A model generated the notes under the pieces. The model saw only the letters and a list, made by a program, of their open reading frames with translations. It was not told where the DNA came from and ran no database searches. Position numbers and translations under genes: made by a program. From positions 1,110,001 through 1,142,000 of the forward strand of contig NC_016803.1 in assembly GCF_000189295.2 (NCBI RefSeq): a DNA stretch of 32,000 nt, given 5' to 3'. Positions 13,346 to 32,000 of this stretch are shown here, one piece after another. Origin of the DNA: Pseudodesulfovibrio mercurii (GTDB lineage Bacteria; Desulfobacterota; Desulfovibrionia; Desulfovibrionales; Desulfovibrionaceae). Positions within the stretch are counted from its first letter, which is position 1, and every line of letters starts with the position of its first letter.

Positions 13346-14647
13346 ATGACGAACGAAGAACTGCAACTGAGAAGAGAGAAGGCCGTCCCCAGAGGGGTGT
13401 CCAATGCCGGTCCCATTTTCGCCGCGAGCGCCAAGGGCGCGACCGTCACCGACGTGGAGGGCAGGGAGTACATCGATTTCGCGGGCGGCATCGGCGTGAA
13501 CAACGTGGGCCACTGTCATCCCAAGGTGGTCGCGGCCGTGCAGGAGCAGGCGGGCAAGCTGATGCACTCCTGCTACCACGTCTTCCAATATGAAGGATAC
13601 GTGGCCCTGGCCGAGAAGCTCAACGCCCTGACCCCCGGAGACCACGCCAAGAAGACCGTGCTGGTCAACTCCGGCGCCGAGGCCGTGGAGAACGCGGTCA
13701 AGATCGCCCGCCGGGCCACCGGCCGCCCGGCCATCGTGGCCTCGGCCTCGGGCTTCCACGGCCGCACCCTGCTGACCGCCACCCTGACCGCCAAGGTCAT
13801 GCCCTACAAGGCCGGGTTCGGTCCCTACGCCCCCGAGGTCTACCACATCCCCTACGCCTACTGTTACCGCTGTCCCGTGGGCCGCTCCTACCCCGGCTGC
13901 AACCTGGAGTGCGCCGAGCTGCTCAAGAAGAGCTTCGTGGACATGGCCTTCCCCGAGAGCGTGGCCGCCGTGCTCCTGGAGCCCGTTGCGGGCGAGGGCG
14001 GCTTCGTTGTGCCCCCCAAGGAATATTTCCCGCGCATCAAGGAAATCTGCGACGAGTTCGGCATCCTGCTGATCATCGACGAGGTCCAGTCCGGCATCTG
14101 CCGCACCGGCACCGTGTTCGCCATCGAGCAGTGGGACGTCATCCCCGACCTGCTGACCTCGGCCAAGTCCCTGGGCGGAGGCACGGTCCTGTCCGCCTGC
14201 ACGGGCCGCGCCGAGATCATGGACGCGCCCCAGGTGGGCGGCCTGGGCGGCACCTACGGCGGCAACCCGGTCAGCTGCGCCGCGGGCCTGGCCGTGCTCG
14301 ACGTGGTCGAGACCGAGGACCTGGCGGGCCAATCCCGCGCCCTCGGGTCCAAGGTGCGCGCCGCCTTCGAGGACCTGGCCAAAAAGTACGAGTGCATCGG
14401 CGACGTGCGCGGTCTGGGCTCCATGCTGGCCATGGAGCTGGTCCACGACCGGACCACCAAGGCCCCGGCCGCCGACATCGCCAAGGCCCTGGTGGCCAAG
14501 TGCCGCGAAAACGGCCTGATCATCCTGTCCTGCGGCCACGGCGGCAACGTCATCCGCACGCTCATGCCGCTGGTCATCAGCGACGCCGAGCTGGAAAAGG
14601 GCTTGTCCATCCTGGAAGCGGCCTTCGCCGAAGTGGTAAAGGGGTAG
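13346..14647 (+). CDS. gabT: 4-aminobutyrate aminotransferase (class III PLP aminotransferase)
   Basis: 433 aa, collinear with E. coli GabT as I remember it: RGV...PIFA...VEGREY[IL]DFAGGI..., SGAEAVENAVKIAR, DEVQSG..RTG, GGLGGTYGGNP. Confidence 0.85.
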   Translation: MTNEELQLRREKAVPRGVSNAGPIFAASAKGATVTDVEGREYIDFAGGIGVNNVGHCHPKVVAAVQEQAGKLMHSCYHVFQYEGYVALAEKLNALTPGDHAKKTVLVNSGAEAVENAVKIARRATGRPAIVASASGFHGRTLLTATLTAKVMPYKAGFGPYAPEVYHIPYAYCYRCPVGRSYPGCNLECAELLKKSFVDMAFPESVAAVLLEPVAGEGGFVVPPKEYFPRIKEICDEFGILLIIDEVQSGICRTGTVFAIEQWDVIPDLLTSAKSLGGGTVLSACTGRAEIMDAPQVGGLGGTYGGNPVSCAAGLAVLDVVETEDLAGQSRALGSKVRAAFEDLAKKYECIGDVRGLGSMLAMELVHDRTTKAPAADIAKALVAKCRENGLIILSCGHGGNVIRTLMPLVISDAELEKGLSILEAAFAEVVKG

Positions 14648-14651
14648 CACG

Positions 14652-16424
14652 GTGAAAGGACTCTACGGGCGCATACTCTTCATCGACGTCACCGGGCGGA
14701 CCTTTTCCATCGAGCCGCTCGGGGACGCCTGCCCGCCCCTGCCCGGAGGCAAGGGACTGGGCACGCGCCTGCTGCTGGAACACAACCCGGCCGGGGTGGA
14801 TCCGCTCTCCCCGGACAACCGGTTCGTCATCACCACGGGCCCGTGCTGCGGCACGGGCGTGTGGGGGGCGAGCCGTTACGGCGTCTTTTCCAAGTCGCCG
14901 CAGACCGGCTTCTACGCGGAATCCTACTCCGGGGGCCGAACCCCGGAGGCCATCGACCGGGCCGGTTTCGACGCCATCGTCGTGACCGGCGCGGCCGACG
15001 TGCTGACCGTCCTGGCCATCCACCCGGACGGCTGCGATTTTCATGAGGTCCCACAGCTCAGGGGGCTCGAGACCTACGCCGCCGAGGACGCCCTGCTCGA
15101 ACGCTACGCCCCCAGGGGCGAGGGGTACGGCAGGCCCGGCGCCATGGTCATCGGCCCGGCGGGCGAGAACCTGGTGGCCTTCTCGGTCATCGAGAACGAC
15201 TACTGGCGCAGCGCGGGCCGGTGCGGCCTGGGCGCGGTGCTCGGCTCCAAGCGGATCAAGGGATTGGTCTTTTCCGGGGACCGCAGGCGCGAGATGGCCG
15301 ACCCCGAGGGCCTGAAGAATTTCAACAGGGAACTGCTGGCCGCCAACGGCGACTCCCCGGCGGTCAAGGCCTACCGGGCCCGGGGCACCACCCAGATGGT
15401 CGCCCTGATGAACACCGTGGGCGCCTTCCCGAGCCGCTACTGGTCGGCCGGGTCCTGCGATCACTGGGAACGCATCAGCGGCGACGCCTTCCACGAACAG
15501 CACGAGGTCACGCCCCACGCCTGCCTGAAGTGCTTCATGGCCTGCGGCCGCAAGGCGCGGATCAAGAGCGGCCCGCACAAGGGGCTGACCATCGAGGGCC
15601 CGGAGTACGAGACCATCTACGCCTTCGGCGGGCTGTGCATGGTCCGCAACATCGACGAGATCGCCCACCTGAACGACCTGTGCGACCGTCTGGGGCTGGA
15701 CACCATCTCGGCGGGCAACCTCTGCGGCATGGTCGCCGAGGCCTCCAGCCAGGGCCGCCTGGACGCCCCCCTGACCTACGGCGACACGGCCACCATCGCC
15801 GCCCTGCTGGAGCAGATCGCGGGCCGCGAGGGGCTGGGCGACGTGCTGGCCGACGGCATCATCAAGGCGGCGGACAAACTCGGCCTGTCGGACATGGCCG
15901 TGCACGTCAAGGGGCTCGAGCCCGCCGGGTACGACCCGCGAGTGCTCAAGGGCATGGGCCTGACCTACGGGACCTCCCCGCGCGGGGCCTGCCACCTGCG
16001 GACCACCTTCTACAAGGCGGAGCTGTCCGGGATGATCCCGTCCGACGCCGTGGAGGGCAAGGCCGACCTGCTCATGGATTTCGAGGACCGGCTGATCGTC
16101 TTCGACTGCCTGATCCTGTGCCGCTTCTACCGCGACATGTACGGCTGGGCCGAACTGGCCCGGCTGCTCACCCTGGTCACCGGAGAATCCTGGGATGAAT
16201 CCACCCTGCGCCGGGCCGCTGCCCGCGTGGTGGACGACACACGGCGGTTCAACGTCCGCGAGGGGCTGACCCCGAAGGACGACCGCCTGCCCAGGAAGCT
16301 TCACGAGGCCCTGCCCACCGGGCAGGTCATAACCCGCGAGGAGTACGCGCTCCTCCTCAATGACTACTATCGCCTGCGCGGCTGGGATGAATCGGGCGTA
16401 CCGCCCGTCCCGGCCGCCGAATAG
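14652..16424 (+). CDS. aor: Aldehyde:ferredoxin oxidoreductase family protein (tungstopterin/[4Fe-4S] type)
   Basis: 590 aa with a GTG start 4 nt after the gabT stop. N-terminal AOR domain (GRILFIDVT..., GGKGLGTRLL). Cluster motif C-x2-C-x3-C (HACLKCFMACGRK) plus the distal Cys (PRGACHLR). Confidence 0.88.
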   Translation: MKGLYGRILFIDVTGRTFSIEPLGDACPPLPGGKGLGTRLLLEHNPAGVDPLSPDNRFVITTGPCCGTGVWGASRYGVFSKSPQTGFYAESYSGGRTPEAIDRAGFDAIVVTGAADVLTVLAIHPDGCDFHEVPQLRGLETYAAEDALLERYAPRGEGYGRPGAMVIGPAGENLVAFSVIENDYWRSAGRCGLGAVLGSKRIKGLVFSGDRRREMADPEGLKNFNRELLAANGDSPAVKAYRARGTTQMVALMNTVGAFPSRYWSAGSCDHWERISGDAFHEQHEVTPHACLKCFMACGRKARIKSGPHKGLTIEGPEYETIYAFGGLCMVRNIDEIAHLNDLCDRLGLDTISAGNLCGMVAEASSQGRLDAPLTYGDTATIAALLEQIAGREGLGDVLADGIIKAADKLGLSDMAVHVKGLEPAGYDPRVLKGMGLTYGTSPRGACHLRTTFYKAELSGMIPSDAVEGKADLLMDFEDRLIVFDCLILCRFYRDMYGWAELARLLTLVTGESWDESTLRRAAARVVDDTRRFNVREGLTPKDDRLPRKLHEALPTGQVITREEYALLLNDYYRLRGWDESGVPPVPAAE

Positions 16425-16434
16425 GAGGAAAGAT

Positions 16435-17457
16435 ATGACCCTTGAAGCATACGCCGTGCACAAGAGCTACGGCGACGTCCAAGCCCTGAAGAACGTTGAC
16501 CTGACCGTCCAGAAGGGTGAGTTGTTCACCCTGCTCGGGCCATCAGGCTGCGGCAAGACCACCCTGCTCAGGATCATCGCCGGGCTGGAACAGGCCGACT
16601 CGGGCTCCATCTTCCTGAACGGGATGCCCATCACCCAGAAGCCCGCCAACGAGCGCCCGGTGAACACGGTCTTCCAGAGCTACGCCTTGTTCCCGCACAT
16701 GAACAACGCGGACAACGTGGCCTTCGGCCTGCGCTCCCAGAAGATTCCGGAGAGCGAGATCCGCATCAGGGTGAACAAGATTCTCGAGATGCTCGAGCTG
16801 ACGAATTTCAAGGACCGCTTCCCGGACCAGCTGTCCGGCGGCCAGCGACAGCGCGTGGCCATGGCCCGCGCCCTGGTCTGCGAGCCCGAACTGCTCCTGC
16901 TGGACGAGCCCATGTCCGCCCTGGACGCCAAGCTGCGCACCCAGCTCCAGATCCAGCTGCGGCGGCTCCAGCAGCAGCTGAACAAGACCTTCATCCTGGT
17001 CACCCACGACCAGGACGAGGCCCTGACCGTGTCCGACCGCATCGCGGTCATGAAGGACGGCGAAATCCTGCAATACGGCTCCCCCCAACAGATCTACGAC
17101 CGGCCCAACTGCCGCTTCGTGGCCGAATTCATCGGCACGGCCAACATCCTCGACGCCGAGCGGCGCAACGACCAGATCATCACCCACGCGGGCAAGCTGG
17201 CCGTGCCCTCCCCGCCCCAGTGGAAACGCGGAGCGCTGGTCATCCGGCCCGAGGGCATCGTCATGCGCGACCAGGAGCCCGAGACCAACGGCGTCTGGGC
17301 CACGGTCACGGAGACCTTCTACCGCGGCAACTTCCTGGACATCACCCTGGAACCGGCCGGGCTGCGCATGCGCTGCGCCCCGCACAAGAAGGTCCAGGCG
17401 GGCGACCAGTTATGGGTCGAACTGCTCAAGGACGCGCTGGTGGCCATCGATGACTAA
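16435..17457 (+). CDS. potA: Spermidine/putrescine ABC transporter ATP-binding protein
   Basis: AGGAGG RBS. Walker A GPSGCGKTT, VNTVFQSYALFPHM, signature LSGGQRQRVAMARAL, Walker B LLLLDEP, and a C-terminal TOBE-like domain. Confidence 0.88.
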   Translation: MTLEAYAVHKSYGDVQALKNVDLTVQKGELFTLLGPSGCGKTTLLRIIAGLEQADSGSIFLNGMPITQKPANERPVNTVFQSYALFPHMNNADNVAFGLRSQKIPESEIRIRVNKILEMLELTNFKDRFPDQLSGGQRQRVAMARALVCEPELLLLDEPMSALDAKLRTQLQIQLRRLQQQLNKTFILVTHDQDEALTVSDRIAVMKDGEILQYGSPQQIYDRPNCRFVAEFIGTANILDAERRNDQIITHAGKLAVPSPPQWKRGALVIRPEGIVMRDQEPETNGVWATVTETFYRGNFLDITLEPAGLRMRCAPHKKVQAGDQLWVELLKDALVAIDD

Positions 17458-18370
17458 CGAGAAGCAAACCGACACCCAGATCTGGTACGGCGAGCTGACC
17501 ACGCGCAGCGCGCTCCGGCGACGCGGACTGCTTCAGGTCTCGCCCGGCCTGTTCTGGATTCTCATGTTTCTGACCGTGCCCGCCCTGGCGCTCATCGCCC
17601 TGTCCTTCGCCACGCGCGGCGGCTACGGCGAGATCGAGTGGATCTTCACCTTCGAGAATTTCAGCAGGCTGGCGGGCTACGGCATGTTCGGCTGGAGCCC
17701 GGACTACCTGATCATCCTGGCCCGCTCCCTGTGGGTGGCCTTCGTGACCACCACGGTCTGCACGGCGCTCGCCTTCCCGCTGGCCTTCTTCATCGCGGGC
17801 AAGCCCAAGACCACCCGCTACGTCTGGCTGACCCTGGTCATCATCCCCTTCTGGACCAACCTGGTCATCCGCACCTACGCCTGGCAGCTGGTCCTGTCCC
17901 CGGACCTGCCCATCGCCAAGTTCGCGGCCGCCCTGGGGTTGGTCCCGGAGGGCAGCCCGCTCTACCCGTCCGAGTTCGCCGTCTACCTGGGCATGATCTC
18001 CGCCTTCCTGCCCTTCGTGGTCCTGCCCCTCTACTCCAGCGTGGAAAAACTCGACTGGTCCCTGGTGGAGGCGGCCCACGACCTCTACTCCAACAAGCGC
18101 CGGGTGTTCATGCAGGCCATCCTGCCCCAGACCCTGCCCGGCCTTTCCGTGGGGGCCATCCTGACCTTCGTCCCGGCCATGGGCATGTTCCTCATCCCGG
18201 ACTTCCTGGGCGGGGCCAAGTACATGCTGGTGGGCAACCTGATCCAGCAGCAGTTCGGCAAGAGCCGCGACTGGCCCTTCGGCGCGGCGGTCTCCCTGGC
18301 CCTGATGGCCCTGACCCTGGTCGGCCTGTTCGTGTTCCGGCGCAAGGGCGAGAAGATGGAGGTGGTCTAG
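17450..18370 (+). CDS. potB: Spermidine/putrescine ABC transporter permease
   Basis: 306-aa multi-pass membrane protein with the EAA-type loop (EAAHDLYSNKRRVF). It overlaps the potA stop by 8 nt. Confidence 0.85.
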   Translation: MTNEKQTDTQIWYGELTTRSALRRRGLLQVSPGLFWILMFLTVPALALIALSFATRGGYGEIEWIFTFENFSRLAGYGMFGWSPDYLIILARSLWVAFVTTTVCTALAFPLAFFIAGKPKTTRYVWLTLVIIPFWTNLVIRTYAWQLVLSPDLPIAKFAAALGLVPEGSPLYPSEFAVYLGMISAFLPFVVLPLYSSVEKLDWSLVEAAHDLYSNKRRVFMQAILPQTLPGLSVGAILTFVPAMGMFLIPDFLGGAKYMLVGNLIQQQFGKSRDWPFGAAVSLALMALTLVGLFVFRRKGEKMEVV

Positions 18371-18371
18371 C

Positions 18372-19193
18372 ATGCAGTTCCAACGCAAGCCGATCCTGAT
18401 CCCGGCCGTGGCCCTGGGCACCCTGGCCTTCCTGTACATCCCGCTCCTGGCCGTGGCCTCGTTCTCGGTGAACAACTCCCGGTTCGGCCTGACCTGGCAC
18501 GGGTTCACCTGGAAGTGGTACCTGGAGCTCTTCCAGAACGAACAGATCCTCGAGGCCGTGGGCAACACCCTGCTCCTGGGGTTGGTCTCCACGGCCGTCG
18601 CCACGGTGGTGGGCACGGCGCTGGCCATCGGCATGAGCCGCTTCCCGTGGTCGAAGAAGACCTCGGCCTTCTTCGAGTTCAACCTGTACATGCCGGTCAT
18701 CACCCCGGAGATCGTCTTCGCGGGCGCCCTGGTCATCGCCTTCGCCTCCCTGCGCTACGTCTCCTCGGCCTTCGAGCCCGGCATGCTGAACATGATCATC
18801 GGCCACGTGACCTTCCAGGTGGCCTTCGTGGCCCTGGTGGTCCGCTCGCGCCTGGCGGCCTTCAACAACGAGATCGAGGAGGCCTCCCACGACCTCTACG
18901 CCACCAACTGGTACACCCTGCGCAAGGTCATCCTGCCCATGCTCACCCCGGGCATCGTGTCCGGGGCCATGCTGGCCTTCACCCTGTCGCTCGACGACTT
19001 CATCATCAGCTTCTTCACGGCCGGGCCGACCTCGGTGACCCTGCCGCTTTACATATATGCGGAAGTGCATCGCGGCATCACGCCGAAGATCCACGCCCTG
19101 TCCACGGTCGGCCTGCTGCTGACCATCGTCCTGGTGATCGCCTCGCAGAAAATAACAAACAGTTTCAATGAAAAGGAGAGAGATGATGCGTAA
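18372..19193 (+). CDS. potC: Spermidine/putrescine ABC transporter permease
   Basis: 273-aa multi-pass membrane protein with the EAA loop (EEASHDLYATNWYTLRKV). It starts 1 nt after the potB stop. Confidence 0.85.
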   Translation: MQFQRKPILIPAVALGTLAFLYIPLLAVASFSVNNSRFGLTWHGFTWKWYLELFQNEQILEAVGNTLLLGLVSTAVATVVGTALAIGMSRFPWSKKTSAFFEFNLYMPVITPEIVFAGALVIAFASLRYVSSAFEPGMLNMIIGHVTFQVAFVALVVRSRLAAFNNEIEEASHDLYATNWYTLRKVILPMLTPGIVSGAMLAFTLSLDDFIISFFTAGPTSVTLPLYIYAEVHRGITPKIHALSTVGLLLTIVLVIASQKITNSFNEKERDDA

Positions 19194-20226
19194 ACTGCTG
19201 CTGGCCATGCTCATGGTCCTGGTGATGGTCCCCTCCGCCTTCGCGGCCGAGGAAATGCGCCTGCTCATCTGGAGCGAATACATGCCCGAAGATTTCCTGA
19301 CGGATTTCGAAAAGGATACGGGCATCAAGGTGCGCGCGGAATACTACGAATCAATGGAAGAGATGGTCGCCAAGCTCCAGGCGGGCGGCAAGAACCAGTA
19401 TGACGTGGTCGTCCCGTCCGACTACATCATCCCGGCCATGATCAAGCTGGAACTGCTCAAGGAGCTCGACCACTCCAAGCTGCCCAACCTGAAGAACCTC
19501 CAGGAAACCTTCATCGACCCGGCCTGGGACAAGGGCAACAAGTACACCGTGGCCTACCAGTGGGGCACCTTGGGCATGATGTACCGCAAGGACAAGCTCA
19601 AGGACTTCGACGGCTCCTGGTCGGTCATGTTCGACCCGGCCAAGCGCCAGGGTCCGTTCATCTTCATCGACTCCATCCGTGAGATGCTCGGCTGCGCCCA
19701 GTGCGCCATGGGCATGGACGTCAACACCACCCAGAAGGCCGACCTCAAGGCCCTGCTCGACAAGATGCTCGAGGCCAAGAAGTCCGACTACTTCGCCGGC
19801 TTCGACGTGGGCACCGGCGGCCGCTCCAAGGTCGTGGCCGGCACCGCCGTGGCCGCTATCGTCTACAACGGCGACGCCCTGCGCGCCGTGGCCGACAACC
19901 CGGACACCTGCGCCTTCGTGAACCCCAACGAGGGAACCATCGGCTGGGTGGACAACATGTCCATCCCCATCGGCGCCCCGCACCCGGACATGGCCTACGC
20001 CTTCATCAACTGGGTGCTCGAGCCCCAGGTCGGCGCCAAGCTGTCCAACTGGACCCAGTACGCCACCCCGAACAAGGCGGCCTACCCGTACATCACCCCC
20101 GAGGACTTCAAGAACCCGGCCATCTACCCGGCCGAGTCCTACATGTCCAAGATCCAGTTCATCAAGGACCTGGGCAACGACAACAAGATGTACGACCAGA
20201 TCTGGACCATGGTTAAGACCCGTTAA
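19183..20226 (+). CDS. potD: Periplasmic spermidine/putrescine-binding protein (PotD/PotF family)
   Basis: Signal peptide MMRKLLLAMLMVLVMVPSAFA after an AAGGAGAG RBS. ATG 19183 is preferred over the track start 19168, and 19186 is also possible. PotD-like body (LLIWSEYMPEDF..., YDVVVPSDY). Confidence 0.85.
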   Translation: MMRKLLLAMLMVLVMVPSAFAAEEMRLLIWSEYMPEDFLTDFEKDTGIKVRAEYYESMEEMVAKLQAGGKNQYDVVVPSDYIIPAMIKLELLKELDHSKLPNLKNLQETFIDPAWDKGNKYTVAYQWGTLGMMYRKDKLKDFDGSWSVMFDPAKRQGPFIFIDSIREMLGCAQCAMGMDVNTTQKADLKALLDKMLEAKKSDYFAGFDVGTGGRSKVVAGTAVAAIVYNGDALRAVADNPDTCAFVNPNEGTIGWVDNMSIPIGAPHPDMAYAFINWVLEPQVGAKLSNWTQYATPNKAAYPYITPEDFKNPAIYPAESYMSKIQFIKDLGNDNKMYDQIWTMVKTR

Positions 20227-20237
20227 TCCTCCAACCC

Positions 20238-20266
20238 GGCGGCCGGGGGACCACACCCCGGCCGCC
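20238..20266 (+). other. Intra-operon GC hairpin without a U-tract (11-bp perfect stem) after potD
   Basis: ggcggccgggg-gaccaca-ccccggccgcc, followed by atactcatcATG rather than a T-run. Confidence 0.6.
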
Positions 20267-20275
20267 ATACTCATC

Positions 20276-21832
20276 ATGCTAGAAGACCATTATCTGCTCA
20301 TCAACGGCAACATCATCTCCATGGACGGCCGGGACAACCGGTACGAAGCCATGGCCGTGGAAAACGGCCGCATCCTCCGGGTCGGCGCAAACGACGACAT
20401 GGCCGACCTCGCCGAGGCGGGCTGGCCGGTCACCGACCTCAAGGGCAAAACGGTGTTGCCCGGTTTCATCGACACCCACCAGCACCTCGGCCTGACCGGC
20501 CAGGTCCTGAACGGTATCGACTTCCAGGGTACCAGGACCCTCAGAACCGTTTTCGAGAAGGTCCGGGAGGCGGCAACCATCGCCGCGCCCGGTGCCTGGG
20601 TCCTCGGTTACACCCTCAACGACTTCTCCCTCGAGGAAGGGCGGATGCCCATCAAGGAGGAGCTGGACGCGGTCTGCGCCGACAACCCGGTCATGATCGT
20701 GCACTCCTCCTGGCACATGTGCGCCCTGAACTCCCTGGCGCTGGAAATCCTGGCCCCGCCCGCCGACCTGCCGGGCATGGACCTTAAACCGAACGGCGAA
20801 CCCACCGGCGTGGTCCGCGACCCCGGCGCGCCCGACTTCATCTTCCCGGCCGTGTCCACGCGCACCCCGGTGGAGGTCAAACTCGCGAGCTTCCGCAAGG
20901 CGTGCGAAGCGGCCCTCAAGCAGGGCATCACCACCCTGCACTGCCTGGAGGGCGGCGGCTTCGGACCGGGCGACACCCGCATCGTCCACGACAATCTGGA
21001 CAAACTCCCGGTCAACGTGGTTCTCTGGAACCAGGTCATGGACGTGGACGAGACCGTGGGCATGGGGCTCACGCGCATCGGCGGCTGCATCTGCGCCGAC
21101 GGTGCCATCGACGCCTACACAGCGGCCCTGTTCGAGCCCTACCTGAACCAACCGGGCAACCGCGGGACCCTGAACTTCACCCAGGAGGAGATGGACGCCT
21201 TCGTCCTCGCCTCGCACAAGGCCGGGCTCCAGGTGGCCGTGCACTGCGAGACCGACAGGGCCATCGAACAGGTCCTGTCCGCCATGGAAAAGGCCATCGC
21301 GGCCTACCCCCGCGCCGACCACCGCCACCGCATCGAGCACTGCGAGATCCCCACCGTGGACCAGGTGGAGCGCATGGGCCGGGCGGGCATCCTGGCGGGC
21401 ATGCAGCCCGCCTTCATCCACTACCTGGTGGATATGGAAGACTACGAAAAACGCTTCGGCTGGGACCGGCTGCGCTGGATGCATCCCTACCGGACCATGC
21501 TCGACAACAACGTCATCATGACCGGCGGCTCCGACTGCCCGGTCACCCCGCACGGCCCGCTCACCGGCATCCAGACCGCCGTGCTCCACCCCATCGAGGA
21601 GGAACGCCTTACCCCGATGGAGGCCATTCGCATGTTCACCATCGACGCCGCCTACAGCGCCTTTGACGAGGCCAATCGTGGCAGCATCGAACCGGGCAAG
21701 ATCGCCGACCTGGTGATTCTGAGCGCCGACCCGACAGAGGTACCCCCGGAAACCATCCGCGAGATCAAGATCGTCAAGACCGTCGTGGAAGGCAAACCGG
21801 TGGAAGATCCCAGGGACGGGCCCGCGGCCTGA
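20276..21832 (+). CDS. Metal-dependent amidohydrolase (Amidohydro_3 / YtcJ-like), substrate unknown
   Basis: 518 aa. N-terminal metal-ligand motif GFIDTHQHL (HxH). Later HCE/HRIEHC and GGSDCP motifs are typical of the amidohydrolase superfamily TIM barrel. Confidence 0.75.
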   Translation: MLEDHYLLINGNIISMDGRDNRYEAMAVENGRILRVGANDDMADLAEAGWPVTDLKGKTVLPGFIDTHQHLGLTGQVLNGIDFQGTRTLRTVFEKVREAATIAAPGAWVLGYTLNDFSLEEGRMPIKEELDAVCADNPVMIVHSSWHMCALNSLALEILAPPADLPGMDLKPNGEPTGVVRDPGAPDFIFPAVSTRTPVEVKLASFRKACEAALKQGITTLHCLEGGGFGPGDTRIVHDNLDKLPVNVVLWNQVMDVDETVGMGLTRIGGCICADGAIDAYTAALFEPYLNQPGNRGTLNFTQEEMDAFVLASHKAGLQVAVHCETDRAIEQVLSAMEKAIAAYPRADHRHRIEHCEIPTVDQVERMGRAGILAGMQPAFIHYLVDMEDYEKRFGWDRLRWMHPYRTMLDNNVIMTGGSDCPVTPHGPLTGIQTAVLHPIEEERLTPMEAIRMFTIDAAYSAFDEANRGSIEPGKIADLVILSADPTEVPPETIREIKIVKTVVEGKPVEDPRDGPAA

Positions 21833-21892
21833 CCGCTCCCCCCATCCCTGACCGAAGTCCCGAAAGCACCACCAGAAACACGGAGTGGAATC

Positions 21893-23248
21893 ATGACCCG
21901 TAACATTGACGAAGCATTTAAGGAAGCAACTGAATTTATTGATATTATTACGAAGCCTGTGGGCAGTGTCTCCCTGGAGGAGCGCCAAAACATCGCCACC
22001 GAGACCGTGGAGAACTTCCGCGACTACATCAACAAGGGGTTCCTGGAGTACCGCAAGTCCGTGACCGAGGCGGGCGAGTTCGCCGTGACCGAGTGGATGG
22101 GCCAGGGGTCCATCCTCAAGGACGCCCTGGATCGCGAGTACATCGACATCCTCGGCGGGTTCGGCCTGTACAGCTACGGTATCCGCCACCCCAGGATCGT
22201 GGAGGCGGTCAAGGCTCAGCTCGACCGCTCGCCCCAGTACTCCCAGGAGATGCTCGACCCCCTGCGCGCCAAGCTCGCCCGGATCATCGCCAAGCTGACC
22301 CCCGGCGACATCCAGTACGGCTTCTTCGCCAACTCCGGCACCGAGGCCGTGGAAGGGGCCATGAAGCTGGCCAAGTTCTACACCGGCAAGAAGGGCTTCA
22401 TCTCCATGCTCAAGGGGTTCCACGGCAAGACGCTGGGTTCCCTGTCGCTCATGGGCAAGACCGACTACCGCGCCCCGCTGCTGCCCCTGCTCGAAGGCAT
22501 GCGCCACGTGCCCTTCGGCGACCTGGAGGCCGTGGAGCATGAGCTGAAGTACGCGGCCGCCGTGGGCGACGACATCGCCGCCGTGGTGGCCGAGCCCATC
22601 CAGGGCGAGGCCGGAGCCATCGTCCCGCCCGACGAATTCTGGCCCGGCCTGCGCGAGGTCTGCGACAAGTACGAGGTGCTGCTCATCGCCGACGAGGTCC
22701 AGACCGGCTTCGGCCGCACGGGCAAGATATTCGGCGTGGACCACTGGGACGTGGCCCCGGACATCATGTGCTTCGGCAAGGCGCTCGGCGGCGGCGTGGT
22801 GCCCATGTCCGGCTTCTTCTCCACCCCCAAGTTCTGGGAGGTCATGGAGCCCAACCCGTTCATGCACACCACCACCACGGGCGGCAACCCCCTGGCCTGC
22901 GCCTCGGCCCTGGCCGCCATCACGGTCATGCACGAGGAGAACCTGCCCGCCCAGGCCGCCCAGAAGGGCGAGTATGTCAAGGCCCGCCTGGCCGAACTGT
23001 CCGAAAGACACCCGGGCATCCTCAAGGAGGTCACCGGCAAGGGGCTGCTCATCGGCATGCACTTCATGGACGACGAGATCGGCTACCACGTGGCCTCCGG
23101 CCTGTTCGCGCGCGGCGTGATCACCGCCGGGACCCTGACCAACGCCCGGTGCATCCGCTTCGAGCCCGCCCTGAACATTCCCATGGAACTGCTTGACGAA
23201 GCCCTGAACAGAATGGAAGACGTCTTTAAATCGCTGCCCGTCAGCTAA
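21893..23248 (+). CDS. patA: Putrescine aminotransferase (PatA/YgjG-like class III aminotransferase)
   Basis: 451 aa, closely collinear with E. coli PatA as I remember it: GGFG...HP..V.AV..QL...P..SQE[ML]LDPLRA.LA, NSGTE[AS]VE[GA]A[ML]KLAK, DEVQTG.GRTGK.F, HTTT.GGNPLAC. Confidence 0.85.
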   Translation: MTRNIDEAFKEATEFIDIITKPVGSVSLEERQNIATETVENFRDYINKGFLEYRKSVTEAGEFAVTEWMGQGSILKDALDREYIDILGGFGLYSYGIRHPRIVEAVKAQLDRSPQYSQEMLDPLRAKLARIIAKLTPGDIQYGFFANSGTEAVEGAMKLAKFYTGKKGFISMLKGFHGKTLGSLSLMGKTDYRAPLLPLLEGMRHVPFGDLEAVEHELKYAAAVGDDIAAVVAEPIQGEAGAIVPPDEFWPGLREVCDKYEVLLIADEVQTGFGRTGKIFGVDHWDVAPDIMCFGKALGGGVVPMSGFFSTPKFWEVMEPNPFMHTTTTGGNPLACASALAAITVMHEENLPAQAAQKGEYVKARLAELSERHPGILKEVTGKGLLIGMHFMDDEIGYHVASGLFARGVITAGTLTNARCIRFEPALNIPMELLDEALNRMEDVFKSLPVS

Positions 23249-23259
23249 GGAGGATTCCC

Positions 23260-24702
23260 ATGAACACGAACGAGATGAAGCTTTGGATCAACGGCCAGTG
23301 GACCGACGCAGCCGACGGCGGCGTGTTGGAAGTGGAGAATCCCGCGACCGGCGAAGTGGCCGCCACTGTGGCCAAGGCCGGTGAAAAGGACGTGCTCAAG
23401 GCCGTGGCCGCGGCCAAGACCGCCTTCGAGGACGGCCGCTGGTCCGGCCTGACCCCGTCCCAACGGTCCAAGTGCCTGTGGAAGCTGGCCGACCTGCTCG
23501 AGGCCCGCAAGGAGGAGTTCGCCCGCATCGAATCCGAGGACACGGGCAAGCCCTTCGCCTTCCTCAGCCTGGGGGCGGACCTGCCCTTCTGCATCGACAA
23601 CCTGCGCTTCTTCGCCACGGCCGCCCGCGACACCGGCGGCCACCACGCGGGCGAGTACGCGCCGGGCTACACCTCCCTGTACCGCCGCGACCCGGTGGGT
23701 CCGGTGGGCCAGATCGCCCCGTGGAACTACCCCCTGCTCATGGGCGTGTGGAAACTCGGCCCGGCCCTGGCCGCGGGCTGCACCGCCGTGCTCAAGCCCG
23801 CCTCCCTGACCCCGCGCACCTCGCTCATGCTCGGCGAACTGACCGCCGAGGCGGGCATCCCCGACGGCGTGGTCAACGTGGTCGCGGGTTCCGTGGGCCA
23901 CATCCTGACCAGCCATCCGGACATCCGCATGGTCTCCCTGACCGGAGCCACCGAGACCGGCAAGTCGGTCATGAAGAGCTGCGCCGACACGGTCAAGCGG
24001 GTCCACCTGGAGCTGGGCGGCAAGGCCCCGTGCCTGGTCTTCAGCGACGCGAACATCGACCTCGTGGCCGAGAAACTGTCCATCGCGGCCATCTGCAACT
24101 CCGGCCAAGACTGCACCGCCGCCACGCGCATCATCTGCCACAAATCCGTCGAGAAGCAGGTCTGCAACGTCATGGCCGAGGCCATGAAGAAGATCGTGGT
24201 CGGCGATCCCTTTGACGACGCCACCCAGATGGGCTCCATGATCTCCGGCCGCCACCTGGAGATGGTCTCCGGCTTCGTGGAACGCGCCAGGGCCGACGGG
24301 GCCACCGTGCTCTGCGGCGGCCAGGCCATCGACCGGCCCGGCCACTTCTACACCCCCACGGTCATCACCGACGTGCGCCAGGACTCCGAGATCGTCCAGC
24401 AGGAGGTCTTCGGCCCGGTCATCACCATCCAGACCTTCGACGACGAGGCCCAGGCCATCGCCATGGGCAACGACGTGGTCTTCGGCCTGGCGTCGTCCGT
24501 GTTCACCAAAGACGTGGCCCGGACCATGCGCGTGGCCAAGGCCCTGGAGTTCGGCACGGTCTGGGTCAACGACCACCTGCCCCTGGCCTCCGAGACCCCG
24601 CACGGCGGGTTCAAGCAGTCCGGTTTCGGCAAGGATCTGTCCGCCGAGGCCGTGGGCGACTACCTGGTGACCAAGCACGTGATGATCAACAACGCCGTCT
24701 AG
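23260..24702 (+). CDS. patD: Gamma-aminobutyraldehyde dehydrogenase (PatD/YdcW-like NAD-dependent aldehyde dehydrogenase)
   Basis: Strong AAGGAGG RBS, 480 aa. Aldehyde dehydrogenase motifs: IAPWNYPLLM, catalytic ELGGKAP and NSGQDCTAATR. Collinear with E. coli PatD as I remember it. Confidence 0.8.
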   Translation: MNTNEMKLWINGQWTDAADGGVLEVENPATGEVAATVAKAGEKDVLKAVAAAKTAFEDGRWSGLTPSQRSKCLWKLADLLEARKEEFARIESEDTGKPFAFLSLGADLPFCIDNLRFFATAARDTGGHHAGEYAPGYTSLYRRDPVGPVGQIAPWNYPLLMGVWKLGPALAAGCTAVLKPASLTPRTSLMLGELTAEAGIPDGVVNVVAGSVGHILTSHPDIRMVSLTGATETGKSVMKSCADTVKRVHLELGGKAPCLVFSDANIDLVAEKLSIAAICNSGQDCTAATRIICHKSVEKQVCNVMAEAMKKIVVGDPFDDATQMGSMISGRHLEMVSGFVERARADGATVLCGGQAIDRPGHFYTPTVITDVRQDSEIVQQEVFGPVITIQTFDDEAQAIAMGNDVVFGLASSVFTKDVARTMRVAKALEFGTVWVNDHLPLASETPHGGFKQSGFGKDLSAEAVGDYLVTKHVMINNAV

Positions 24703-24751
24703 CGGCGCGAAAAAACATTCAACCGCCTGCCCGAGGCAGGCAGAGAGCGAC

Positions 24752-25822
24752 ATGGCGAACACCCCCGTTACCCCCATCCGCGTCCCGGTCCGCGCACCGG
24801 CCTGCGACGGGCTCTTCATGCCCGGCGAATGGGCCGAGCACGAGGCCACCTGGATGATCTGGCCGTGCAAGCCGTCGGCCTGGCCCTTCGGCATGGACAA
24901 GCCCCGTCTTGCCTACGCCGAAGTGGCCAAGGCCATCAGCCGGTTCGAGCCGGTGTACATGATGTGCCGCCCCGAACTCATGGCCCAGGCCAAGGCCCTG
25001 TGCGGCGACGCCGTGACCCTGGTGCCCATGGACACCCGCGACTCCTGGGCGCGCGACTCGGCCCCGACCTTCGTCATCGACGGCAGGGGCGGCGTGGCCG
25101 GCGTGGACTGGGTCTTCAACGACTGGGGCCACATCGCCCGGTATGAGGGCAAGTACGACGAGCCCATGGCCCAGGCCGTGCTCGAACACCTGTCCATGCG
25201 CCGCTACGCCGCGCCCTGCATCATCGAGGGCGGCGGCATCCACTCGGACGGCGAGGGCACCCTGTTGACCACGGAGCAGGTCCAGTTCGACCCCCGGCGC
25301 AACGCGGGCTTCTCGAAGGGCGACTTCGAGGCCCTGTTCGCCGCCTACCTGGGCACGGAAAAGGTCGTCTGGCTCGGCAACGGGCTGGAGGACGACGAGA
25401 CCAACGGCCACGTGGACATCCTGGCCTGCTTCGTCCGGCCCGGCGTGGTCATGGTCCACGACTGCACCGACCCGGACGACGCCAATTACAAGGTCTCGCG
25501 GGACGCCATACAGCGGCTCGAAACAACCACGGACGCGCGCGGCCGGTCCTTCGAGATCATCCGTATGCCCCAGCCCGCGCCGCGCTTCAACGGCGACTGG
25601 CGCATGGACCTGAGCTACATCAACTTCTACATCGCCAACGGCGGCATCGTCATGTCCTCCTTCGACGACCCCATGGACGAGACGGCGTACAGGCTGATGT
25701 GCGAGGCCTTCCCCGGCCACGAGGTGATCCAGCTCCCGTGCCTGGACATCTTCGCCGGGGGCGGCGGCATCCACTGCATCACCCAGCAGCAACCCAAGGG
25801 CACGCCCCTGCCGGTATTCTAG
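24752..25822 (+). CDS. aguA: Agmatine deiminase
   Basis: 356 aa. PAD_porph-type signature including the C-terminal catalytic Cys motif GGGIHCITQQQP, plus DSWARDSAP and NGHVD. Confidence 0.88.
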   Translation: MANTPVTPIRVPVRAPACDGLFMPGEWAEHEATWMIWPCKPSAWPFGMDKPRLAYAEVAKAISRFEPVYMMCRPELMAQAKALCGDAVTLVPMDTRDSWARDSAPTFVIDGRGGVAGVDWVFNDWGHIARYEGKYDEPMAQAVLEHLSMRRYAAPCIIEGGGIHSDGEGTLLTTEQVQFDPRRNAGFSKGDFEALFAAYLGTEKVVWLGNGLEDDETNGHVDILACFVRPGVVMVHDCTDPDDANYKVSRDAIQRLETTTDARGRSFEIIRMPQPAPRFNGDWRMDLSYINFYIANGGIVMSSFDDPMDETAYRLMCEAFPGHEVIQLPCLDIFAGGGGIHCITQQQPKGTPLPVF

Positions 25823-25831
25823 GAGCGCAGC

Positions 25832-26713
25832 ATGAGCAAAACCACTCTGGCAGTCACCCAGATGGCCTGCACCGACGACCTCAAAGCCAACGTGGACCGG
25901 GCCGAAGCCCTGGTCCGCGAGGCGGCCGCACGCGGCGCGCAGATCATCCTCCTCCAGGAACTGTTCGAAGGACCGTACTTCTGCAAGAAGCAGAAGTTCG
26001 AGTACTTCTCCCTGGCCCACGAGGCGCGCCCCGACGACCCGCTCCTGGCCCGCTTCTCCGCCCTTGCCAAGGAACTCGGCGTGGTCCTGCCCGTGTCCTT
26101 CTTCGAACGCGCGGGCAAGGCGTACTACAACTCCATGGCCATGATGGACGCGAACGGCCGCATGCTCGGGCTGTACCGCAAGACCCACATCCCCCAGGGA
26201 CCGGGCTACGAGGAGAAGTATTACTTCAACCCCGGCGACACCGGCTTCAAGGTCTGGGAGACCGCCTTCGGCAAGGTCGGCCTGGGCATCTGCTGGGACC
26301 AGTGGTACCCCGAGGCCGCCCGGTGCATGGCGCTCATGGACGCGGACGTGCTCCTGTACCCCACGGCCATCGGCTCTGAGCCGACCATGCCGGACTGCGA
26401 CTCCATGCCGCACTGGCGGCGCACCCAGCAGGGCCACGCGGCCGCCAACATCCTGCCGGTCTGCGCGTCCAACCGCATCGGCACCGAGACCGACGACGAC
26501 GTGACCATGACCTTCTACGGCTCGTCCTTCATCACCGACCCCATGGGCGCGCTCCTGGCCGACGCCGACCGGACCACCCAGGGCGTGTTCACCGCCGAGG
26601 TGGACTTCGACGAGATCCGCAACTTCCGCACCGGCTGGGGCTTCTACCGCGACCGGCGGCCGAAACACTACCGGACCCTCCTGACCCTCGACGGCCACAC
26701 CCCGGCCGACTAG
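25832..26713 (+). CDS. aguB: N-carbamoylputrescine amidase (nitrilase/CN-hydrolase superfamily)
   Basis: 293 aa. CN-hydrolase catalytic triad context (LQELF...; YRKTHIP; GLGICWDQWYPE). It starts 9 nt after aguA. Confidence 0.85.
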   Translation: MSKTTLAVTQMACTDDLKANVDRAEALVREAAARGAQIILLQELFEGPYFCKKQKFEYFSLAHEARPDDPLLARFSALAKELGVVLPVSFFERAGKAYYNSMAMMDANGRMLGLYRKTHIPQGPGYEEKYYFNPGDTGFKVWETAFGKVGLGICWDQWYPEAARCMALMDADVLLYPTAIGSEPTMPDCDSMPHWRRTQQGHAAANILPVCASNRIGTETDDDVTMTFYGSSFITDPMGALLADADRTTQGVFTAEVDFDEIRNFRTGWGFYRDRRPKHYRTLLTLDGHTPAD

Positions 26714-26732
26714 GGGAAGCGACCCCGCAACG

Positions 26733-26767
26733 AAAAGGGCGCCCGGTTTGGCCGGGCGCCCTTTTTT
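26733..26767. terminator. Bidirectional intrinsic terminator ending the polyamine operon
   Basis: aaaa-gggcgcccgg-tttg-ccgggcgccc-tttttt. It lies 20 nt after the aguB stop and about 100 nt past the stop of the convergent radical SAM gene. Confidence 0.8.
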
Positions 26768-26871: not shown

Positions 26872-28221
26872 TCAGAGCAGGCACTGCAGGCCGCCCATGC
26901 ACCACAGGCAATGGCCGCAGGGGATGGTCGCGCCCAGGCAGTCGCAGTCGAAATCGAAGGGCGCTCCCTTGATGTCGTCGCAGGGCACGAACGGGCAGTT
27001 GGAGCAATAGGGGTATTCGTATTCCAGCACCTGGCGGCGGAAATCCGCGTAGGAAGCGCCCCGCCAGATGTCCACCAGGTCGCGCTCGCGGATGTTCCCG
27101 AAGAGCCACGGCCGGACCACCTTTTTGCCGCCGTCCAGGTGGCAGGCGTACTGGTGCCACAGGAACTGGCACGGGCTGACGTCCCCCTGCGAGGTGACGA
27201 AGGCCGTGCCATCCTCCACGAAATGGCAGCGCCGCTCGTCGCGGGCCTTGAGGGGCGGCAGGCGCAGCTCCAGCCCGGCGCGCAGGGCCGCGTCCCCGGC
27301 CTGCCGGAAACGATGCGCCAAGTCCCGCTCCGCCCCGTCGAGGTTGCGCCGGTCCCATTCGAGCAGGTGGGGCAGGTGGACCCACACGCCCGAGGCCTCG
27401 GCCTCGGCGAGCAACCCCTTGACCAGCTCGAGCAGCCGCTTCTCCCGGTCCGACTTGACGAACTTCCAGGCCACGCCCTGCTGGTCGTGCAGGTCGAGCC
27501 CCTGTTCCGCCGCCCTGGCCTGCCATTTTTCGAACAGGGCCGTGGCCGCCGGGGTGTTGGGGTTGAACAGGGACTGATCCTGCATGGCCTGGTCGTAGGG
27601 CAACACGTGGGAGACTATGGCGAAGTCCAGGCCGATCTCCCCGGCCCAGCGGACGACCAGGGGCAGCTGGTCGGCGGTGTCGCGCATGAGCACGAATTCC
27701 AGGCCCAGGCGCAGGCTCCGGCCGTACCGCTCCCCTGCCCGGCGCAGCAGGCGGAAGGCGCGCTCCAGGCGGGCCGCCCCGGTCATGCCGTGCAGCTCGC
27801 CCCCGGCCGCGAGGCCCATCTCCAGGGTGTCCACCGAGACGCAGAAGGTATCCACGCCGGATTCGACCAGACGGTGGGCCAGGGATTCCGTGACCAACAG
27901 CCCGTTGGTCTGGAAGCCGATCCAGCCGGACGCGGGCATGACGGACCGGGCAAAGGCGGCCATGTCCGGCAGGTCGGGATTGAGCAGGGGCTCGCCGATG
28001 CCGTTGAGGACCAATGCCTCGCACCGGGCCAGGGCCGGTTCAAGCCGCCGGAAGGCGTCGAGGTCCAGGTCGGTCTCGGGGATGTCGCTGTCCGGGGCGG
28101 ACTTGACGCACATGGCGCAGCGCATGTTGCAGCGCGTGGTCACCTCCACCTGGAGCCGGGACGGAAAGGACGGTTCCGGACGGGTGGCGGCGGGAGCGGG
28201 AAATGTCTGGGGGCGGTTCAT
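26872..28221 (-). CDS. Radical SAM enzyme with C-terminal SPASM domain and an additional Cys-rich tail
   Basis: Radical SAM motif TTRCNMRCAMC (C-x3-C-x2-C). SPASM motif C-x13-G-x4-C (CHFVEDGTAFVTSQGDVSPC), then CSNCPFVPC. Extra tail DCDCLGATIPCGHCLWCMGGLQC. ATG 28221 is preferred; the track start 28296 is a TTG. Neither start has a strong RBS. Confidence 0.8.
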   Translation of the reverse strand: MNRPQTFPAPAATRPEPSFPSRLQVEVTTRCNMRCAMCVKSAPDSDIPETDLDLDAFRRLEPALARCEALVLNGIGEPLLNPDLPDMAAFARSVMPASGWIGFQTNGLLVTESLAHRLVESGVDTFCVSVDTLEMGLAAGGELHGMTGAARLERAFRLLRRAGERYGRSLRLGLEFVLMRDTADQLPLVVRWAGEIGLDFAIVSHVLPYDQAMQDQSLFNPNTPAATALFEKWQARAAEQGLDLHDQQGVAWKFVKSDREKRLLELVKGLLAEAEASGVWVHLPHLLEWDRRNLDGAERDLAHRFRQAGDAALRAGLELRLPPLKARDERRCHFVEDGTAFVTSQGDVSPCQFLWHQYACHLDGGKKVVRPWLFGNIRERDLVDIWRGASYADFRRQVLEYEYPYCSNCPFVPCDDIKGAPFDFDCDCLGATIPCGHCLWCMGGLQCLL

Positions 28222-28321
28222 GACGGCGGTTCCATGGGGTTGGGTCGGGGGAACCGCCTGTATACGGCAAAGCGGACGCGCCGTCGAGGGGTGCAAGCGG
28301 CCCGTTCCCGGCGGGGTCCCC

Positions 28322-28666
28322 CTATCCGGCCGGGGAGGTCAGACCGGACACCGAGGTGCCGATGAACTCGTCCAGGGTCGCGCCGTCCGACTCGCCGATG
28401 AGCCGGTTGATCTCGCGGCCGCCGTGGAACAGCAGAAAGGTGGGCGTGCCCTTGACCGCGAAGCGCTCGGTGGCCGTGTCCAGGTAGTCGGCGTTGTACA
28501 GGAAGAACCGAACGGTGTCGCCGTGGGCCCGGTGAGCCGTTTCCAGGACCTGCAACTGCACGGAATATTTTTCATTCCGTTTCAGGAAGGCGATCAGCAG
28601 AGGAGAGCCGCCGCTGTGCAGTTCCATGTCGATGGCCTGTGGCTCGATGATCTTGATCGTGCGCAT
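28322..28666 (-). CDS. Thioredoxin-fold protein lacking all cysteines (redox-inactive)
   Basis: 114 aa with GAGGAG RBS 7 nt upstream of the ATG. Thioredoxin-like pattern PLLIAFL...VRFFLYNAD...FAVKGTPTFLLFHGGREI..LIG. The WCGPC position reads KRNEKYS, and the protein has no Cys at all. Confidence 0.7.
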   Translation of the reverse strand: MRTIKIIEPQAIDMELHSGGSPLLIAFLKRNEKYSVQLQVLETAHRAHGDTVRFFLYNADYLDTATERFAVKGTPTFLLFHGGREINRLIGESDGATLDEFIGTSVSGLTSPAG

Positions 28667-28726
28667 GCGTTCGCTCCTCGCCGGAACGCGGGCCGAAGGT
28701 CCGCCGTCCGGGCTTACTCCGACACA

Positions 28727-28744
28727 TAGCAGGGAGCGAGCCGT
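28727..28744 (-). promoter_or_regulatory. Sigma-54 (-24/-12) promoter for the thioredoxin-fold/radical SAM operon
   Basis: The minus strand reads cGGCtcgctcccTGCt. GG is at 28742-41 and GC at 28730-29, in consensus spacing. It lies about 60 nt upstream of ATG 28666 and directly downstream of the sigma-54 activator gene. Confidence 0.5.
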
Positions 28745-28815
28745 GTTGCATTACATCAACTCGTTAGTATGGTTATAACTTCATCCCGCCGGATGCGGGA
28801 CGCGACGGTCCGGGC

Positions 28816-31829: not shown

Positions 31830-32000
31830 ATGTCATCTTTTACCGAAGCCGATCTGCCCGTTGACGTCCATCATGGGGAAATGATTACTCTGGCGGACGG
31901 GACCACGGTCAGGTTCGAATCCAACGGAGAAGCCAAGGACATTATGGTCAACGACGGGTTCGCCCCGGCCTGCACCCTGTTCCCCGGCAACGATTTCGTC
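31830..32000 (+). CDS. Hypothetical protein, N-terminal 57 aa only (runs off the window)
   Basis: AGGAGG RBS at 31819-24, then ATG 31830. The frame stays open to the window end (MSSFTEADLPVDVHHGEMITLADGTTVRFESNGEAKDIMVNDGFAPACTLFPGNDFV). It is divergent from the activator gene. Confidence 0.5.
   Translation, partial: MSSFTEADLPVDVHHGEMITLADGTTVRFESNGEAKDIMVNDGFAPACTLFPGNDFV

Follow-up and report, generated by a model that had tools for sequence, protein, structure and literature searches.

Introduction

Do a cysteine-free thioredoxin-fold protein and an enzyme of the radical S-adenosylmethionine (SAM)/SPASM type, encoded side by side on the same strand, constitute a functional module, or are the two genes merely neighbors? 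The question is raised by a locus of Pseudodesulfovibrio mercurii ND132, which we analyzed within a stretch of 32,000 nucleotides (nt) of contig NC_016803.1 (positions 1,110,001 to 1,142,000 of the forward strand), from here on the window, in whose own numbering all window positions are given. The thioredoxin-fold gene is referred to as trxL, and the proteins of trxL and of the enzyme gene are both 100% identical to those of ND132. A first-pass annotation had proposed a two-gene module expressed from a sigma-54 promoter, with trxL serving as substrate, chaperone or recognition partner of the enzyme. The sequence reading behind that proposal was accurate, but its central interpretation does not hold. 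Instead, we consider it probable that the locus juxtaposes three units, each evolving on its own, the enzyme being a stand-alone maturase with a target encoded elsewhere. The features on which the argument turns are the following.

26872-28221, minus strand: radical SAM/SPASM enzyme gene, 449 amino acids counted from the ATG, TIGR04311 member
28322-28666, minus strand: trxL (DND132_1043), cysteine-free thioredoxin-fold protein of 114 amino acids
28816-31686 (longest open reading frame to 31746), minus strand: sigma-54 activator gene, receiver (REC) + four PAS + AAA+ (GAFTGA) + HTH_8
31830-31997, plus strand: 5' part of hyp80, divergent from the activator and cut at the window end
26731-26767, both strands: A-run/GC hairpin/T-run terminator, serving the polyamine operon as well as the radical SAM gene that converges with it

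The trxL and enzyme genes are separated by an intergenic spacer of 100 nt, and the radical SAM gene converges with a long plus-strand polyamine/aldehyde operon. Across the activator, trxL and enzyme genes the G+C content at third codon positions amounts to 0.87-0.93 (0.91 for the enzyme gene), a coding-like bias.

Co-occurrence of the enzyme and trxL

The comparison was built on 80 genomic loci with enzyme relatives, one genome per species, to which further loci were added via trxL relatives and via closer enzyme relatives, yielding 107 sequences in total (106 loci and the window). The enzyme is present in 86 and trxL in 28 of these, both genes together in only seven, leaving 79 of the 86 enzyme loci without trxL and 21 of the 28 trxL loci without the enzyme. 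A trxL profile run over the 80 enzyme loci and the window matched in the two closest loci and the window only. All seven loci with both genes are Pseudodesulfovibrio-type, and in a neighbor-joining tree the enzymes encoded beside trxL form one clade (five of the seven such loci were included). The co-conservation that the first-pass annotation had named as a check on its module was accordingly not found, the genes standing together in a single Pseudodesulfovibrio subclade and each being widespread without the other.

The most direct comparison is provided by locus L094, which has the same gene order as the window and encodes an activator, a trxL and an N-carbamoylputrescine amidase that are 83%, 81% and 90% identical to those of the window, respectively. 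From this otherwise syntenic locus the radical SAM gene is cleanly absent, a presence/absence polymorphism that is observed directly. There, trxL carries its own hairpin-plus-T terminator, directly followed by a conserved bidirectional hairpin terminator equivalent to that at 26731-26767, and the window sequence 3' of the radical SAM stop codon aligns with the L094 sequence 3' of the trxL terminator. In L105, a gene for a solute-binding protein (SBP_bac_3) lies between trxL and the radical SAM gene. More generally, what follows trxL varies by locus and may be the radical SAM gene, a gene for a dCache-GGDEF protein or for a dCache chemoreceptor, or a convergent kinase gene, or else no gene separates trxL from a convergent MarR-DsbD_2 pair. 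Because each gene is widespread without the other, and the enzyme is missing from L094, we judge the adjacency to be real, lineage-restricted and dispensable in both directions.

These data bear directly on the idea of a dedicated pair, in which trxL and the enzyme would be expressed from a sigma-54 promoter under the adjacent activator and trxL would act as substrate, chaperone or recognition partner. Such an arrangement is congruent with the shared strand and short spacer, in which no terminator was found, with an adjacency kept in seven Pseudodesulfovibrio-type loci down to 62% enzyme identity, and with the lack of a visible precursor peptide. The 79 enzyme loci without trxL and the 21 trxL loci without the enzyme speak against it, as do the enzyme-free L094, in which trxL has a terminator of its own, and the gene inserted in L105. 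Taken with the promoter and tail data described below, we regard a dedicated pair as unlikely.

The radical SAM enzyme and its family

Against NCBIfam, the enzyme matches TIGR04311 with 628.2 bits (cut-off 400), residues 19-448 covering positions 1-423 of the 423-position model. This family (rSAM_Geo_metal), the neighborhood of which normally lacks a trxL gene, is described as "radical SAM/SPASM family putative metalloenzyme maturase", and many RefSeq orthologues are so named. TIGR04317 was reached with 211.2 bits, below its cut-off of 380, the best stretch (residues 303-447) falling on positions 208-348 of the 349-position model. An alternative raised in the first-pass annotation, that of a tungsten-cofactor maturase, thus survives in the sense that the family of the enzyme is a sister to TIGR04317, but the enzyme itself is not a member. 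Other named SPASM families scored far under their cut-offs in NCBIfam (NirJ 59.6 versus 515, AhbD 47.3 versus 500, PqqE 36.1 versus 381 and MftC 33 versus 265), and the cut-offs of the AhbC and sactipeptide maturase models were likewise not reached. Pfam assigns Radical_SAM and SPASM domains (the latter as PF13186, 54.8 bits, residues 332-410). Within the gene, three segments are of relevance.

28108-28131, minus strand: radical SAM cluster motif C31-x3-C35-x2-C38, invariant in the 16-member alignment
26992-27228, minus strand: SPASM domain, residues 332-410, including C332-x13-G346-x4-C351
26881-27006, minus strand: Cys-rich C-terminal tail with C406, C409, C414, C426, C428, C435, C438, C441 and C447

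In an alignment of 16 family members, 43-100% identical to the P. mercurii protein, C31, C35, C38, C127, C332, G346, C351 and C360 are invariant. Both cysteine motifs recognized at first reading are present. The Cys-rich extension beyond the SPASM motif (residues 406-447) is equally present, but is not the exceptional trait it had been taken for. Since seven tail cysteines (C406, C409, C414, C428, C435, C438 and C447) are invariant in 16 of 16 members, and since the segment aligns to the TIGR04317 C-terminus, the tail is, judged from sequence, a norm of TIGR04311 that is also found in TIGR04317 and not peculiar to the P. mercurii protein. By the same measure, the enzyme is an ordinary TIGR04311 member, belonging to the longer sister family of TIGR04317, the latter being linked to the aldehyde ferredoxin oxidoreductases (AORs).

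An AlphaFold2 model of the enzyme reached a predicted local distance difference test score (pLDDT) of 81, with a helical stretch at about residues 210-315 that separates the core from the SPASM domain, and with low confidence confined to the Cys-rich residues 403-433, presumably because the model carries no bound clusters. Most likely, the tail ligates one or more auxiliary iron-sulfur (Fe-S) clusters. A sequence search of the PDB returned BtrN and MoaA as the best matches, with weak E-values of about 1e-6 to 1e-4, and a Foldseek search with the model recovered generic SPASM/twitch enzymes at a template-modeling (TM) score of about 0.45, with SkfB, SuiB and anSME among the nearest. Neither search found a solved structure of a close relative.

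SPASM enzymes often modify peptides. That habit, together with the appearance of SkfB, SuiB and anSME among the nearest solved folds, would be compatible with a maturase of peptides, including ribosomally synthesized and post-translationally modified peptides (RiPPs), whose short precursor gene has been missed. However, no open reading frame of at least 20 amino acids with plausible context was detected in the 100-nt spacer, the leader or the 3' flank, which confirms the first reading of these segments, and no small gene is conserved across the 80 enzyme loci, where small neighbors are clade-specific (MoaD, TSCPD, RHH-like or trxL). Pfam moreover finds no RiPP recognition domain. We consider a peptide substrate of this kind highly improbable.

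The trxL protein and its activator

With 114 residues and zero cysteines, trxL scores 24.7 bits against Pfam Thioredoxin PF00085 (gathering score 23.5) and 23.9 bits, under the cut-off of 96.8, against the NCBIfam thioredoxin model. An AlphaFold2 model (pLDDT 84.8) displays the canonical thioredoxin order b1a1b2a2b3a3b4b5a4, and with this model Foldseek retrieves thioredoxins at a TM score of about 0.8. Sequence, model and structural search hence bear out the initial description of a thioredoxin-like protein that cannot be a redox thioredoxin. The position of the CxxC motif is taken by KRNEKY, which is conserved as AFLKRN(E/D)(K/R)(F/Y) among 20 relatives, and with the CxxC replaced thiol-disulfide chemistry is impossible. 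Also conserved in the alignment are the cis-Pro loop KGTPTFLLF (GTPT) and a GE(S/T)D loop, GESD in trxL. Most relatives keep a cysteine at position 54, where P. mercurii has a phenylalanine. It would appear that trxL retains the interaction surface of thioredoxins while the redox chemistry has been lost. The family is small, with two clusters at 50% identity when collected at E <=1e-30, and more distant CxxC-less relatives exist.

The C-terminal tail of trxL, GTSVSGLTSPAG, had been put forward as a possible substrate segment. It varies among relatives in both length and sequence, which rules it out as a conserved substrate motif, and residues 111-114 fall below a pLDDT of 50.

The multi-PAS sigma-54 activator recorded upstream of trxL was recovered as a REC, four PAS, AAA+ and HTH_8 protein with an intact GAFTGA motif, 956-976 amino acids long depending on the start. 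The longest open reading frame opens at a GTG (31746), and 20 codons in there is an ATG (M21, 31686) preceded by a GGAG ribosome-binding site, this preceding sequence being conserved in orthologous loci. Translation from this ATG begins MPVSSTILVADG, with the Pfam receiver match starting a few residues on, and 31686 is the likely start.

Wherever the locus sequence extends far enough, the activator is found directly upstream of trxL, and this holds down to a trxL identity of 32-37%. Beyond the activator, most trxL loci in which the far side is covered encode the divergent 80-residue hyp80 followed by a stand-alone receiver (about 124-139 amino acids). By tblastn, hyp80 is 80% identical to an 80-residue protein of L081 (hyp80-receiver region 1976-2794, minus strand), and neither Pfam nor NCBIfam yields a match for it. 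Because the activator is the evolutionarily constant neighbor of trxL, we believe that trxL is probably a protein-binding accessory of the signaling system of the activator.

Promoters and transcription

The -24/-12 element read upstream of trxL was re-examined in the context of the following minus-strand features.

28743-28728, minus strand: proposed -24/-12 element CGGCTCGCTCCCTGCT, within the spacer of the sigma-70-like promoter
28723-28751, minus strand: sigma-70-like trxL promoter, -35-like ATGCAA (28751-28746), 17-nt spacer ending in TGC, -10-like TATGTG (28728-28723)
28763-28778, minus strand: conserved box TTATAACCATACTAAC (TTATAAY-N4-nnTAAC), upstream of the -35-like hexamer in trxL loci
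28259-28287, minus strand: promoter-like TCGACG - 17 nt - TATACA, within the spacer between trxL and the radical SAM gene

The GG-N10-GC spacing of CGGCTCGCTCCCTGCT is correct, as had been stated, but the element is weak, scoring 18 of 21 in a weighted matrix, and nine equal or better sites, mostly intragenic, occur in the 2 x 32 kb of the window. At this position GG-N10-GC is found in four of 19 trxL upstream regions (P. mercurii, caledoniensis, karagichevae and indicus), and it is missing from L099, L105 and L106, where the enzyme is present. In contrast, a sigma-70-like layout of ATGCA(A/T), exactly 17 nt ending in TGn, and TAnnnT is shared by 19 of 19 trxL loci, with TGn in all 19 and the TA at -10 positions 1-2 in 18. 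The TGC of the proposed -24/-12 element coincides with the TGn of this extended -10. The box TTATAACCATACTAAC is a candidate protein-binding site or UP-like element.

Strong sigma-54 sites that might be the true target of the activator were also sought. In 14 loci none scoring at least 19 was seen close to the activator, trxL or hyp80, and in 20 loci of Desulfovibrionaceae none precedes the radical SAM gene. Low matrix scores do not exclude function, since the matrix is crude and the likely sigma-54 promoter of the polyamine operon, which resembles CGGCTCGCTCCCTGCT, scores only 16.5. Conservation does not support sigma-54 control of trxL and the enzyme as a pair, but for the P. mercurii subclade, where the intact GG-N10-GC of four species would suit a dedicated pair, such control is conceivable in view of the similar-looking polyamine promoter and of the P. 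indicus comparison and the L103 promoter described below.

Between trxL and the radical SAM gene, five spacers could be aligned. CTCGAC is present in five of five and a -10-like hexamer at 17 nt in four of five, and owing to this combination of an invariant CTCGAC and a -10-like hexamer the spacer suggests a promoter of the radical SAM gene itself, a further point against the dedicated pair.

Side observations concern other sigma-54-like sequences. A candidate sigma-54 promoter, CGGATCAGCCCTTGCT (13277-13292, plus strand), lies 54 nt before the aminotransferase start, and two copies of TTGATTTGATyTTGAATCA (about 13126 and 13192-13211, plus strand) upstream of it are likely activator binding sites. 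The top sigma-54-like match of the window, AGGCACGAGTGCTGCT (11128-11143, plus strand), is situated about 80 nt upstream of a second activator gene (start 11223). At L103 (1430-1576), the palindrome GTCGCATGAGACAA...TTGTCTCATGCGAC is found upstream of TGGCATTGATCTTGCT, preceded by an activator that is 50% identical to that of the window and followed by a dCache chemoreceptor gene.

Gene contexts of the enzyme family

The gene contexts of TIGR04311 track the clades of the tree, two of them turning up repeatedly in clades that are not related to one another. The first, in about 14-16 loci including Nitrospirota, Thermodesulfovibrio and Anaeromyxobacter, has the order AOR, a protein of about 210-250 amino acids (without Pfam or NCBIfam match), ThiS/MoaD and radical SAM enzyme (L027, L040, L045, L054, L059, L062, L064, L075, L076 and others). 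Since other lineages show these AOR-MoaD contexts and the enzyme is homologous to TIGR04317, we tentatively favor a pyranopterin tungsten or molybdenum enzyme, such as the AORs of this genome, as the target, a proposal to which we attach somewhat less than even confidence. No ThiS/MoaD gene is located near the P. mercurii enzyme gene. Two AORs are encoded in the window, one at 14652-16424 (plus strand, in the polyamine operon) and a second that is truncated by the left window end.

The second recurring context, in about 17-19 loci including Geobacter and several Desulfovibrionaceae, consists of arsR, an arsC of the low-molecular-weight protein tyrosine phosphatase (LMW-PTP) type, acr3 and the radical SAM gene on the same strand, with the latter at the 3' end, sometimes accompanied by a gene for an ArsM-like methyltransferase or an ArsP_1 permease (L005, L007, L009, L010, L031, L036-L038, L046, L049, L068, L070, L071, L032, L044 and L067). 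The enzymes of the Desulfovibrionaceae loci are 57-62% (L005, L007 and L009) and 56% (L010) identical to the P. mercurii protein. Beyond these two contexts, HydB/HydG-like subunits and a small protein without known family precede the enzyme in about ten Geobacteraceae loci, and in Maridesulfovibrio the enzyme gene is divergent from a TIGR03905 four-Cys TSCPD gene (L100 6429-6866, minus strand; L003, L004 and L011-L013).

The arsenic link is the main rival as far as the role of the enzyme is concerned. In this view, TIGR04311 enzymes would serve not AOR maturation but arsenic or metalloid stress, for instance in what might be the repair of arsenite-poisoned dithiolene cofactors or a new radical reaction on an arsenical, and P. 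mercurii would have an orthologue whose gene has departed from the ars operon. The recurrence of the arsR, LMW-PTP arsC, acr3 and radical SAM order in several separate tree clades, Desulfovibrionaceae among them, argues in this direction. The AOR-MoaD contexts and the homology to TIGR04317 instead point to pterin enzymes, the vicinity of the enzyme gene shows neither an ArsR gene nor an ArsR site, and the ars operons of P. mercurii lie elsewhere (DND132_0889-0890, 1317-1319 and 2311-2314; bioRxiv 10.1101/2022.10.17.512643). The trxL, enzyme and activator genes go unmentioned in a preprint on the arsenic transcriptome of ND132 and in its supplement (bioRxiv 10.1101/2022.10.17.512643), and our literature searches found nothing on radical SAM enzymes in ars operons. 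Altogether, we hold an arsenic role to be doubtful. A bolder version, suggested by a terminal position in arsR-arsC-acr3 operons that recurs polyphyletically, is that TIGR04311 including the P. mercurii orthologue does not mature AORs but performs a radical SAM reaction so far undescribed and tied to arsenic or metalloid stress, such as mending arsenite-damaged dithiolene cofactors or anaerobic chemistry on an arsenical. The gene of the Pseudodesulfovibrio subclade would then have moved under another signaling system, made up of the activator and the redox-dead thioredoxin; this version we think improbable.

Proposed mechanism and points against it

Aggregated, the findings are best accommodated by the stand-alone reading. 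The enzyme would carry several Fe-S clusters and would act as a maturase, or modify a cofactor, on a target whose gene lies elsewhere, and trxL would be a redox-dead, protein-binding accessory of the REC-PAS sigma-54 activator system. The radical SAM gene probably arrived downstream of trxL a single time, in the Pseudodesulfovibrio subclade, and has since been lost or separated from trxL in close relatives. For its expression, a sigma-70-like promoter of its own may exist, and read-through from trxL is also conceivable.

A number of observations weigh against this reading. As to the separateness of the genes, the radical SAM gene is at or near trxL in seven loci that span 62-100% enzyme identity and have different downstream genes, and its persistence there could reflect function, not inertia. 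A terminator scan of the spacer between trxL and the radical SAM gene found none; there is no T-run, and the RNA fold is no better than shuffles (z = -0.35), so that the two genes could be co-transcribed. In the proposed -24/-12 element, P. mercurii and P. indicus share the GG and the CCCTGC but differ in the intervening bases, and a canonical sigma-54 promoter, TGGCATTGATCTTGCT, stands before a distant trxL homologue in L103 (32% identity). As to the target, the choice of an AOR has no specific support at this locus. The AOR closest to the enzyme gene (14652-16424, plus strand) lies at a distance of 10.4 kb and on the opposite strand, and the AORs of the window are only 26-32% identical to those linked to TIGR04311 enzymes, a level at which their membership in the linked AOR subgroup is ruled out. 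The family occurs in arsenic operons about as often as in AOR contexts, and the searchable literature returned no experimental report on TIGR04311 or TIGR04317 enzymes. Searches for the locus tags DND132_1042-1044 also returned nothing, and a paper on the sigma-54 regulome of D. vulgaris mentions neither thioredoxin, nor radical SAM, nor ND132.

Other features of the window

The polyamine/aldehyde catabolic island occupies 11223-26713 (plus strand) and begins with a PAS sigma-54 activator. It encodes an aminotransferase, the AOR at 14652-16424, a potABCD-like ABC transporter, an amidohydrolase, a second aminotransferase, an aldehyde dehydrogenase, agmatine deiminase and N-carbamoylputrescine amidase. 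The matching stretch of P. sediminis (L099) lacks annotation of these genes; after the radical SAM gene come GT2, MntP and others there, and then FtsJ, yebC and ruvC. An Rfam scan of the whole window gave a tRNA gene as the sole match (10065-10137, plus strand; RF00005, 66 bits).

Significance and comparison with known systems

For the window itself little changes, as the enzyme already has a curated family name and its tail is the family norm. The reaction of TIGR04311 and TIGR04317, once known, would fill a gap in either tungsten-enzyme maturation or anaerobic arsenic biology. In Pseudodesulfovibrio and also in more distant relatives, a cysteine-free trxL is kept beside a large REC-PAS sigma-54 activator, which hints at a protein-binding accessory of an enhancer-binding protein. 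P. mercurii ND132 is genetically tractable, and close relatives that have or lack the radical SAM gene represent a natural control.

Compared with TIGR04311 in general, the P. mercurii enzyme spans the full model length, possesses all family-invariant cysteines and shows no differences in the protein itself; its trxL and sigma-54 activator neighborhood is lineage-specific, and the family name is a prediction. With TIGR04317, the W_rSAM_matur type of Thermococcus kodakarensis tk1064, the enzyme shares the radical SAM core, the SPASM domain and the Cys-rich C-terminus, but it is about 100 residues longer than the 349-position model, and the adjoining AOR and often MoaD-like gene of that family are absent from the P. 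mercurii locus. In T. kodakarensis, tk1064 lies beside a MoaD-type gene and an AOR and "might be involved" in tungsten cofactor maturation, a role that has been proposed only (PMC11323500), and the tk1066-tk1065-tk1064 arrangement has the same AOR-MoaD-radical SAM order as some TIGR04311 clades (PMC11323500). The structurally characterized enzymes anSME (4k36), SuiB (5v1s) and SkfB (6efn) combine a radical SAM barrel with a C-terminal auxiliary-cluster domain, as does the P. mercurii enzyme. The resemblance is remote (TM score about 0.45, 15% identity), and unlike these proteins the P. mercurii enzyme has four more invariant cysteines (C428, C435, C438 and C447) past the Pfam SPASM match and no adjoining gene for a peptide or protein substrate.

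For trxL, a thioredoxin-related protein of Desulfitobacterium (3gnj) has the same fold and cis-Pro loop (profile E-value 1.4e-9, TM score about 0.8); its NCHVC site aligns to NERFR of the trxL profile consensus, the CxxC site of the trxL family reading KRNE(K/R)(F/Y). Relative to redox-active thioredoxins of the Escherichia coli TrxA type, trxL has the fold without the WCGPC/CxxC active site. KaiB and the N-domain of SasA are redox-inactive thioredoxin-fold signaling proteins. Kinship of trxL with KaiB finds no sequence support, the Pfam match being Thioredoxin and not KaiB; purely by analogy, trxL may be likened to these proteins in that it is likewise small, devoid of catalytic cysteines and encoded beside receiver-domain signaling proteins.

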